This document shows, piece by piece, positions 1 through 33,961 of a stretch of DNA of 35,065 bases. The stretch comes from Candidatus Bathyarchaeota archaeon (GTDB lineage Archaea; Thermoproteota; Bathyarchaeia; Bathyarchaeales; Bathyarchaeaceae): NCBI GenBank assembly GCA_014859755.1, contig JACUTO010000001.1, positions 1 through 35,065 on the forward strand, written 5' to 3'. The notes beneath the pieces are model-generated. The model did not search any database. It was not told where the DNA came from and saw only the letters and a list, made by a program, of their open reading frames with translations. The stretch's first letter is position 1, and the number at the start of each line of letters is the position of its first letter. Both the position numbers and the translations under genes were made by a program.

Positions 1-59
1 TTGCGGTATTCTTCCAACCATTCTTTGCTTGGATACAAAACCATTTTGTTCACCGACAT
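1..59 (-). CDS. 5' end of a CDS that runs off the left edge of the window (MSVNKMVLYPSKEWLEEYR...). Product unknown; the N-terminus resembles SCP2-like proteins.
   Basis: The reverse complement of 1-59 starts with ATG at 59-57 and stays open to the window edge. A second in-frame ATG gives MVLYPSKEW. An AT-rich TATA-like stretch (revcomp TTTTTATTTC) lies about 20-30 nt upstream. Only 19 codons are visible. Confidence 0.3.
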   Translation of the reverse strand, partial: MSVNKMVLYPSKEWLEEYR

Positions 60-266
60 TTCAATTAAATTCTTAGAAATAAAAATCTTACAGTCGCATT
101 CTTTCTAACCAATGACATTCTTGAATTATTAACCAAATTTGCACGCTTCGTGTAGAAAAACCGAGCGCTTGTGCTATTGGGACTAGAATAAGAGTGAAGG
201 ATAAGCTCGAGCGCGAAAAAAGATTGTACAGGACTGGGATAATTTAGCGCTATTCTGAAATCATAG

Positions 267-280
267 AATGCGCGCGCATT
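267..280. repeat. 14-bp perfect palindrome AATGCGCGCGCATT; its 13-mer ATGCGCGCGCATT recurs at 33949-33961
   Basis: Read directly from the sequence. It is self-complementary and sits in an AT-rich spacer. Confidence 0.9.
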
Positions 281-316
281 GAGTTTAGACACAAAAGAAT
301 GTATAATGTCCGTTTT

Positions 317-338
317 GAACACGACATGAACACGACAT
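317..338. repeat. Perfect tandem duplication of the 11-mer GAACACGACAT
   Basis: GAACACGACAT at 317-327 is followed immediately by GAACACGACAT at 328-338. Confidence 0.9.
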
Positions 339-356
339 TTTACGGGGGAAGGGATT

Positions 357-490
357 TGTCACACCTTTTCTATGGAAAAACAACATTGTGTGACACTTTT
401 TTTTGAAGTTGTGAAATGTCTGTCACACCTTTCCAAAAACAACATTATTTTGTCACACCTTTTATCGAAGTGTCACACCTTTTGTCACAC
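357..490. promoter_or_regulatory. Array of six TGT(C/G)ACA(C) palindromic boxes (candidate operator or iteron array)
   Basis: The box centres are at 360, 392 (inverted form GTGTGACAC), 424, 454, 474 and 486. Four boxes carry the extended TGTCACACCTTT. A co-repeated AAAAACAACATT lies at 376-387 and 435-446. Confidence 0.6.
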
Positions 491-876
491 ATTATCCTCA
501 CGCACTCAATCTTGTGAAGTGTGAAGGTCATGGTCTAAGAGAATCTCTTATGAAGTTTCTATAATCGTATTAAGTTCCCTAGCATGAAGCCCTAAAGCCT
601 TTATCATGTGTTTATCTATTTCACAACATAGTTTTTCCATGAGTTTATCCATAAACTAAGGTTTATTGTCTAGACTATGTTTCGTAAAAGGGGCTGAATC
701 CCAAGTGTCAAATTTCACAGTAGTTTTAGGCAAATCGTAAATGCATGCATGCAATCGTTTTGCGAAGATAGCTGTGTGTATCTGTGTTTTGGGTCGTCTT
801 CGTTTGTAGATGGTTATGGCAACTGTAAGCACAGTAAGTATAAGTAGTATTGATGTTCATGTGAGAAACTCTGTTG

Positions 877-33948: not shown

Positions 33949-33961
33949 ATGCGCGCGCATT
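33949..33961. repeat. ATGCGCGCGCATT, second copy of the 13-mer seen at 268-280 (12-bp palindromic core)
   Basis: Read directly from the sequence, in the AT-rich divergent spacer between the VIT1-like and CaCA genes. Confidence 0.9.

Follow-up and report, generated by a model that had tools for sequence, protein, structure and literature searches.

Organization of the locus

The window, i.e. the whole stretch of DNA that was analysed (35,065 bp), is an entire contig (C187) of a Bathyarchaeia MAG, which comprises 1.67 Mb in 259 contigs and is 81% complete. Genes for archaeal LonB and PurP are present in the window, in line with this origin. At its left end, an open reading frame (ORF) starting MVLYPSKEWLEEYR begins at position 44 and runs off the contig end on the minus strand (window 1-44); the contig end is, therefore, not non-coding DNA, the true non-coding span is 45-876, and over half of this span consists of viral debris, as described below.

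Within this span lies an array of six short boxes (355-495, no strand assigned), delimited by repeat search, alignment and phasing. On its left side are found the G-run CGGGGG (343-349; CCCCCG on the strand of the ATPase gene discussed below), a perfect tandem of the 11-bp unit GAACACGACAT (two copies, 317-338), which forms a second family of sites, and the palindrome AATGCGCGCGCATT (267-280), G-run and palindrome being located through alignments. On its right side, the minus strand at 506-744 carries the 3′ end of a decayed ATPase gene.

The repeat search yields six direct 15-nt copies of TTTGTCACACCTTTT with starts at 355, 387, 419, 449, 469 and 481, spaced, in order, by 32, 32, 30, 20 and 12 bp. 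The 9-bp cores (357-365, 387-395, 421-429, 451-459, 471-479 and 483-491) read TGT-CAC-AC(C/A) on the plus strand, usually with TTTT next; TGTCACACCTTT is exact at 357, 421, 451 and 471, and the core at 387-395 reads TGTGTGACA, in the opposite orientation. The first-pass annotation, made from the letters of this DNA alone, had described a six-copy array with one inverted copy, repeated longer units and a neighbouring 11-bp tandem, and all of these are present, the longer unit being AAAAACAACATT, found twice (at 376 and 435).

The repeats are specific to this place. For TGTCACACCTTT with up to one mismatch, 0.28 copies are expected per window, and the observed count was reached in none of 100 shuffles; across the 1.67-Mb MAG, the exact 12-mer occurs four times, always inside the array (0.25 expected), and the 9-mer TGTCACACC is at chance level outside it, with four more copies (7.6 expected genome-wide). 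The genome-wide map of the motif, which had been proposed as a check, reveals no copy of the exact 12-mer elsewhere. The centres of the six boxes are phased: a scan of periods from 8 to 14 bp peaks at 10.5 bp, where the resultant length R is 0.87, a value equalled by approximately 1% of random placements. The helical phasing proposed at first is, to this extent, confirmed, but the step of 12 bp does not correspond to whole helical turns. A CRISPR-type layout, with regular alternation of repeats and spacers, was also looked for in the array and is not found, the spacings being irregular (12-32 bp).

A decayed viral segment

In every blastn comparison with the homologous contigs L161, L245, L116, L244, L242 and L235, similarity to the window starts at 269 and stops at 739-744, and the contigs homologous to 269-744 extend past both breakpoints. 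Since the homology ends where the relatives' contigs continue, a viral-module relic of 476 bp can be delimited at 269-744 (minus strand), holding a promoter-proximal region, the 11-bp tandem, the box array and the ATPase 3′ end. Both the homology and the status of the segment as a relic are, in this way, demonstrated. The ATPase part, identified by tblastn, genome search and alignment, is an ATPase-HTH pseudogene at 506-744 (minus strand): tblastn matches window 509-741 to the last approximately 78 residues of a viral ATPase, and the corresponding codons are followed by the stop codon at 506-508. The fragment lacks the 5′ two-thirds of the gene, contains in-frame stops at 656-658 and 548-550 (one TAG and one TAA) and departs from the family at five nearly invariant positions in the HTH region. 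The description of the array as lying in a gene-free spacer, with no gene adjacent to it, was thus mistaken. No intact ATPase, integrase, ASCH or Zn-finger gene of this kind was found anywhere in the MAG (81% complete), and, with the ATPase truncated and interrupted by stops and no intact copy found in the MAG, the array is most likely a non-functional leftover in this genome.

The left breakpoint, 269, falls within the palindrome at 267-280. The palindrome TGCGCGCGCA has 41 copies in the MAG versus 0.7 expected, and GCGCGCGC has 163 versus 9 expected; GCGCGCGC is also found at the homologous place in the viral contigs L161 and L245. The location of the breakpoint within one copy suggests that recombination may have taken place at a motif of the GCGCGCGC type. 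A 13-mer of 267-280 recurs at 33949-33961 in the window and, given the over-representation of TGCGCGCGCA and GCGCGCGC, is part of this genome-wide motif.

Beyond the right breakpoint, the minus strand at 764-881 carries a decayed coding segment of a PEF-CTERM-like sorting signal (IPEFPTWTS, a transmembrane helix and YKRRLLKT*), with an internal stop and directly 3′ of a NosD-like gene. At the DNA level, identity is 77-86% with over 20 copies in nine relatives (93% over one 41-nt fragment) and with C125:10565-10653 of the same MAG; the segment is an extra copy tied to surface-protein genes. An ATPase match that seemed to reach 799 was discarded as spurious on account of this segment. A viral nature of the surface-protein genes of the window was likewise considered and rejected: the NosD-like genes have no tblastn match in any viral locus and are, therefore, placed outside the relic. 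An exact-protein look-up of the neighbouring NosD gene returned no record. A NosD/beta-helix protein is encoded near the capsid gene of a virus-like contig of the same family (L251:935-2101).

Homologous arrays in metagenomic elements

A gapped two-box pattern search of metagenome contigs returned more than 120 loci, mostly unrelated, from which a blastn screen left three that are homologous to 269-741 (L116, L161 and L196); four further close relatives were fetched, with ATPases about 74-91% identical. The box pattern in GTDB genomes and in IMG/VR gave unrelated repeats only.

The array follows the stop codon of the ATPase gene in both copies of L116 and in L241, L242, L244 and L245; in L116, it starts approximately 15 nt past the stop codon of this P-loop NTPase gene. 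In L116 (ERZ791558 NODE-3194), positions 1-2013 contain the module of array, small ORF and ATPase twice in tandem, with a period of approximately 1360 bp, which may reflect tandem integration or duplication. The L161 contig ends within the array, with the ATPase side outside the contig; downstream of the array, on the same strand, it encodes a 66-aa Cys-rich ORF, a 127-aa ORF, which is ASCH-like by eye only and has no PHROG match, and the N-terminus of a tyrosine recombinase. L196 encodes a full recombinase of 401 aa. It also contains, adjoining the array (98-445), an open ORF of 115 aa in which an unrelated N-terminus is joined to no more of the ATPase than its last 55 aa, the HTH, with the same sequence as in L116.

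Past the stop codon, the elements share a common scaffold, consisting of CACAAGATTGAGTGCGTGAGGATAATG, the boxes with their spacers, CCCCCGCAAAATG, the 11-bp tandem, the GCGCGCGC palindrome, a TATA box and the next gene; the G-run between the last box and the tandem is kept in all array-bearing elements. The general form of the box is TGT-N3-ACA followed by A's, and N3 is identical among all copies within an element. Thus, the triplet is GTG, in boxes of the form (T/G)GTGTGACA, in the window, L116, L161 and L196; ATG in L245, where TGTATGACA occurs five times; CCG in L244, with five copies of TGTCCGACA; and AAT/ATT in L241 and L242 (TGTAATACA / TGTATTACA). The alignments place the boxes at homologous positions across elements, with spacers and flanks conserved. 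Box spacings across elements are 20/21, 30, 32-34, 40, 50 and 61 bp, with best periods of 10.1-10.6 bp, from which it follows that the elements differ in length by steps of approximately 10 bp. Inverted boxes are found at different positions in different elements, box 1 being direct in the window and inverted in the second L116 copy (L116b) and in L161. The array of the window is 85% identical to that of L116b, with flanks at 65-66%, a difference that may only reflect which virus lineage integrated.

The concerted switching of the boxes and their phasing are, thus, matters of observation. Taken together, the concerted change, the phasing preserved across insertions and deletions and the strand flips are what would be expected of DNA sites that a lineage-specific protein recognizes; the same three features argue against chance, slippage or an RNA function of the boxes. 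The idea of a cooperative-binding array of iteron, operator or partition type, advanced in the first-pass annotation, gains support from the comparative data, since the boxes are conserved in position, change sequence in concert, are spaced by multiples of approximately 10 bp and include one that flips; the setting in a host regulatory spacer had, however, been misread. Membership of a mobile-element family had been named beforehand as counting against that idea, and the array does lie within a provirus fragment.

A function of the repeats as RNA, in a non-coding RNA or as an element of the 3′-UTR of the ATPase mRNA, is extremely unlikely. The array is located directly 3′ of the ATPase stop codon and may be transcribed, but the array region has no Rfam match even at E <= 1 and contains no tRNA, and its predicted folding is unremarkable on either strand (z-scores of -1.3 and -0.65). 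Furthermore, the flipping of the boxes from one strand to the other between elements speaks for the recognition of DNA rather than RNA.

The 11-bp tandem behaves similarly: within each element the two copies agree, as GAACACGACAT in the window, L161 and L245 and as (G)ACCTAACAT in L116b and L244. Copies related to the tandem flank the TATA box of the next operon in L245, L161 and L244, so that, on sequence grounds, the tandem appears to be a second, operator-like family of sites, which switches like the boxes. Whether the boxes themselves could be operator or activator sites, through which a small viral regulator controls the operon of Zn-finger protein, ASCH protein and integrase in a lysogeny/induction switch, has to be considered in this context. 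The next operon and its TATA box lie 130-300 bp downstream of the array and share its strand, and the bracketing of that TATA box by the neighbouring tandem family is operator-like in itself. A precedent is offered by F55 of the virus SSV1, whose 11-nt target occurs several times over in early promoters (PMC9608457). However, the TGT-N3-ACA boxes do not overlap BRE, TATA box or transcription start site, and a phased array of 170 bp looks more like the scaffold of a large nucleoprotein complex. Archaeal repressors usually act at precisely these promoter elements. Moreover, among the other small viral ORFs, of which few are homologous between elements, no candidate regulator that covaries with box type was found. 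On balance, an operator or activator function of the boxes is rather unlikely, albeit less so than the other alternatives to genome recognition discussed here.

The array is confined to close relatives. It is absent beside the ATPase homologues of approximately 30% identity found in GTDB genomes, and also from the relatives whose ATPase is 55-73% identical (L235, L237, L240, L246, L248, L250 and L251). It is, therefore, not essential to the virus family and is best regarded as an elaboration that arose in one subclade.

The ATPase and its helix-turn-helix tail

The family consensus of the ATPase is 253 aa long, and the longest ORF of L116 is 262 aa from a GTG start, with the Walker A motif GRRGTGKT and the Walker B motif LFLFDEIG. 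The AlphaFold model (pLDDT 84) consists of a P-loop core, a beta-rich middle part and, towards the C-terminus, helices at 208-217 and 229-246, and the segment GHTYKDLEVHPMKINRLCRKF looks like a helix-turn-helix. HTH_23 matches weakly (E 0.023) and only in the C-terminal segment of the array-less L235 homologue; in the three array-bearing homologues tested, it gave no match. The initial view that a dimeric protein occupies palindromic sites can be retained in so far as sequence-specific binding is concerned, but the asymmetric 9-bp box would better suit a monomeric HTH.

Sequence searches with the ATPase return weak initiator-like matches (PHROG DnaA-like, E 0.005; ORC4/Cdc6, E 0.14-0.66). With PADLOC and NCBIfam, only noise at the level of the P-loop is obtained. 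In ParABS partition systems, ParA is marked by the deviant Walker A motif KGGxxK[ST] and works with a partner that binds the centromere; searches for ParA and ParB families gave no matches, and the GRRGTGKT of the ATPase is not of the deviant type. By Foldseek, the nearest structures are the STIV2 B204 packaging NTPase, Zot and A32-like packaging ATPases (TM-scores of 0.45-0.49). Since these neighbours are not AAA+ initiators, a role of the ATPase in packaging or morphogenesis is as plausible as one in initiation.

This raises the issue of whether the ATPase could act as an NTPase of packaging or morphogenesis that reads the array as a signal for packaging or for recognition of the genome. The structural neighbours just mentioned are the best that the ATPase has, and B251 of SSV1 has been linked to replication as well as to packaging (PMC9608457). 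On the other hand, all of their TM-scores are below 0.5, and most members of the family do without the array. We know of no B204-type ATPase with an HTH or with a need for repeated sites. A packaging signal is, in conclusion, an improbable identity for the array.

More direct information on the relation between ATPase and boxes comes from comparisons among close relatives. The first copy of L116 (L116a) and L241, which have different boxes, are 93-100% identical over nucleotides 421-660 of the gene, and identity falls to 82%, 75% and 50% over the HTH end and the array. Conversely, L116a and L116b, which have the same boxes, are 77-92% identical upstream and 97-100% identical over the last approximately 240 nt, i.e. 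HTH and array. Along with the isolated HTH of L196, these comparisons demonstrate that the HTH end of the gene and the array are inherited together and move as one cassette, the boundary of which is the domain boundary. As the two are adjacent, plain linkage could account for their co-inheritance. Only four box types are available for comparison with the HTH, and the decayed HTH of the window is closer to the L245 lineage than to the L116 lineage, although its boxes are of the GTG type.

The virus family

At least 126 proteins belong to the ATPase family, almost all of them from metagenomes and mostly on short contigs. Four long contigs (L246, L248, L250 and L251; ATPase 55-58% identical) all encode His1_capsid (30-59 bits, the Pfam cut-off being 27) approximately 1.5-2.5 kb from the ATPase, and three of the four, L250 being the exception, have an annotated integrase. 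In these contigs, ORFs of approximately 150, 165 and 102 aa precede the ATPase, and an adjoining divergent block holds His1_capsid. Phage_integrase is matched on L196, L235, L237, L240, L246 and L248, and the weaker Phage_integr_3 on L251. Since the array-bearing contigs are 3 kb long or shorter, the capsid genes are seen in array-less relatives only. On this genomic evidence, the elements that carry the ATPase are proviruses of approximately 13 kb resembling spindle-shaped viruses. Two contigs from different samples, L248 (JGI Ga0209986_10003418; 13,916 bp) and L249 (Ga0114919_10002880; 13,912 bp), have the same gene order, and L248 encodes His1_capsid (59 bits), the ATPase, an integrase and many small ORFs; the two are probably complete genomes of an undescribed spindle-shaped virus of Bathyarchaeia. 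GC and AT skew on viral contigs of approximately 12 kb tracks gene orientation only.

One element is integrated within an archaeal contig of 206 kb. The distribution of the ATPase is sporadic. With a threshold of E <= 1e-5, 12 of the 301 genomes searched in the order contain it, a number that includes the pseudogene of the genome under study (G000); with E <= 1e-30, it is detected in 5 of 401 in the class. No relative was detected by tblastn among 50,697 phage and virus records (INPHARED) or by profile search in IMG/VR.

The presence of integrase genes brings up a further explanation, namely that the boxes are attP-like arm sites, which the viral tyrosine integrase would contact through its N-terminal domain in an intasome. 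Arm sites of the lambda type are short phased repeats in mixed orientation. In L161, L246, L248 and L237, a tyrosine recombinase is encoded downstream of the array or of the ATPase, and recombinase genes of this type are also found on L196, L235 and L240. Nevertheless, the boxes are all on one side, no core or crossover site was identified, the relic breakpoints at 269 and 744 are not att-like, and related integrase-bearing viruses do without the array; for comparison with box type, integrases of the GTG type only are available. Intasome arm sites are, in view of these points, an explanation to which little probability can be given.

Proposed role of the array

The array is an iteron- or operator-like array of sites that belongs to mobile elements of a poorly known virus group. 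We hold with moderate confidence a composite interpretation of the locus, according to which the segment 269-744 is a decayed piece of an integrated spindle-shaped Bathyarchaeia virus, and its boxes bind a virus-encoded protein, likely the ATPase through its HTH, in an origin-like role. In particular, that a protein binds the boxes, which protein this would be and the origin-like role are what we infer from comparative sequence analysis.

Intact relatives carry on the minus strand, in this order, the gene for a 253-aa P-loop ATPase-HTH, its stop codon, approximately 15 nt, and five to six phased TGT-N3-ACA boxes with an A-rich tail; past the boxes come the G-run, the 11-bp tandem, the GCGCGCGC palindrome, the TATA box and the next operon, predicted to consist either of small Zn-finger and ASCH proteins and the tyrosine integrase, or of a small ORF and the ATPase. 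A virus-encoded, sequence-specific DNA-binding protein would recognize the boxes, with the central triplet setting the specificity of each virus lineage, and the likeliest binder would be the HTH tail of the ATPase encoded directly upstream. Several ATPase molecules could assemble on the same side of the helix, in the manner of DnaA on its boxes and of Rep on iterons, and, once assembled, may mark the viral genome for initiation of replication or related genome handling. Taken by itself, the assignment of the array as an origin or as a site of iteron-like genome recognition is tentative and falls somewhat short of probable. Iteron-type origins characteristically have at least three replicon-specific repeats separated by whole helical turns, and such an arrangement is found here.

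A more specific version of this assignment would have the array and the ATPase HTH form a DnaA-like pair of initiator and origin, with N3 defining incompatibility or immunity groups and the relic, whose boxes are better preserved than its flanks, acting as a decoy that titrates the initiators of incoming viruses of the GTG type; it is to be regarded as unlikely, and no observation speaks for a decoy.

Comparison with known systems

The closest formal analogy is with the iterons of plasmids and phages and their Rep proteins (pSC101, F, RK2 and P1). Shared features are short, mostly direct repeats, whole-turn spacing, a gene for the presumed binder next to the repeats and a sequence that shifts in concert between related replicons, which gives rise to specificity groups. 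However, the core of the boxes is 9 bp long as opposed to 17-22 bp in iterons, the candidate binder is a P-loop ATPase-HTH rather than a winged-helix Rep, and the array belongs to an archaeal virus. With DnaA and its boxes, the array has in common a P-loop ATPase with a C-terminal HTH beside asymmetric 9-bp boxes in mixed orientation, but homology between the ATPase and DnaA would be no more than putative (DnaA-like through the PHROG match cited above, and matching ORC4/Cdc6 at the level of the P-loop only), and no AAA+ lid domain is seen in its model.

Among viruses, SSV1 (Fuselloviridae) is likewise a spindle-shaped archaeal virus with a tyrosine integrase and a core AAA ATPase, B251, of approximately 250 aa. 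Its F55 sites, targets of an RHH repressor, are similar in kind to the tandem of the window, being 11-nt repeats, and the tandem, too, adjoins a promoter, but the F55 site ATAGATAGAGT has no sequence similarity to GAACACGACAT or to TGT-N3-ACA. Closer in terms of host is the spindle-shaped Bathyarchaeia virus of the ‘Huangdiviridae’, which has capsid proteins of the fusellovirus type and a tyrosine integrase gene beside an AAA+ ATPase gene (PMC10848311). Host class, capsid type and adjacency of integrase and ATPase are, thus, the same, as far as a comparison by description only can tell, whereas no array of binding sites is described in that report (PMC10848311).

Bathyarchaeia are among the most abundant archaea of sediments. 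To our knowledge, almost nothing is known of how replication and gene expression are regulated in their viruses. In this respect, a relic of a few hundred base pairs has led to a family of approximately 13-kb elements resembling spindle-shaped viruses, for which neither IMG/VR nor the collection of phage records searched gave a match, and to what may be a compact recognition code, judging from sequence, in which TGT-N3-ACA boxes and an HTH of approximately 50 aa travel together. If binding is real, this would be the first defined protein-DNA specificity module for viruses of Bathyarchaeia, and would also provide a marker for specificity groups. As regards the annotation of this genome, what had looked like an enigmatic spacer becomes an ordinary provirus scar.

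Relation to host replication origins

Finally, some properties of the locus are those of a host feature, such as an ORB-like chromosomal origin or a cellular operator or partition site. Indeed, 45-876 is a long, AT-rich, non-coding stretch (31-41% G+C over most of it) with a motif that is unique in the genome and a G-run nearby, and the ORB and mini-ORB elements bound by Orc1/Cdc6 resemble the array in being repeated boxes with a dyad element, a nearby G-run and an AT-rich spacer. Unlike ORBs, however, the array is not beside an orc1/cdc6 gene: both such genes are on other contigs, C63 and C253. Only 116 bp separate one of these genes from the end of its contig, and no contig end was found to overlap the start of the window. 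Furthermore, the stretch is homologous to contigs of mobile elements and holds a viral pseudogene. Comparison of the orthologous spacer in related genomes, also proposed at the outset, revealed no homologue: window 1-760 has no match in 40 relatives of the same family or order, in which the exact 12-mer is at control level, and the fragment described here is the sole trace of the ATPase family in the taxonomic family, the other 59 genomes searched having none. A host feature of any of these kinds is, accordingly, very improbable.

As to the chromosomal origin in particular, the region upstream of the C253 orc1 copy in the closest relative (G004; Orc1 92% identical) does not match the window, and none of 17 orthologous orc1 upstream regions contains comparable repeats, so that the window was rejected as its location. 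Elsewhere in the MAG, a 726-bp spacer upstream of orc1/cdc6 (C63:5239-5963; L019 140-864) contains AACTTGTGAAGT three times, and CTTGTGAAGT has 13 copies in the MAG versus 4.8 expected; this spacer is a candidate for the chromosomal origin.
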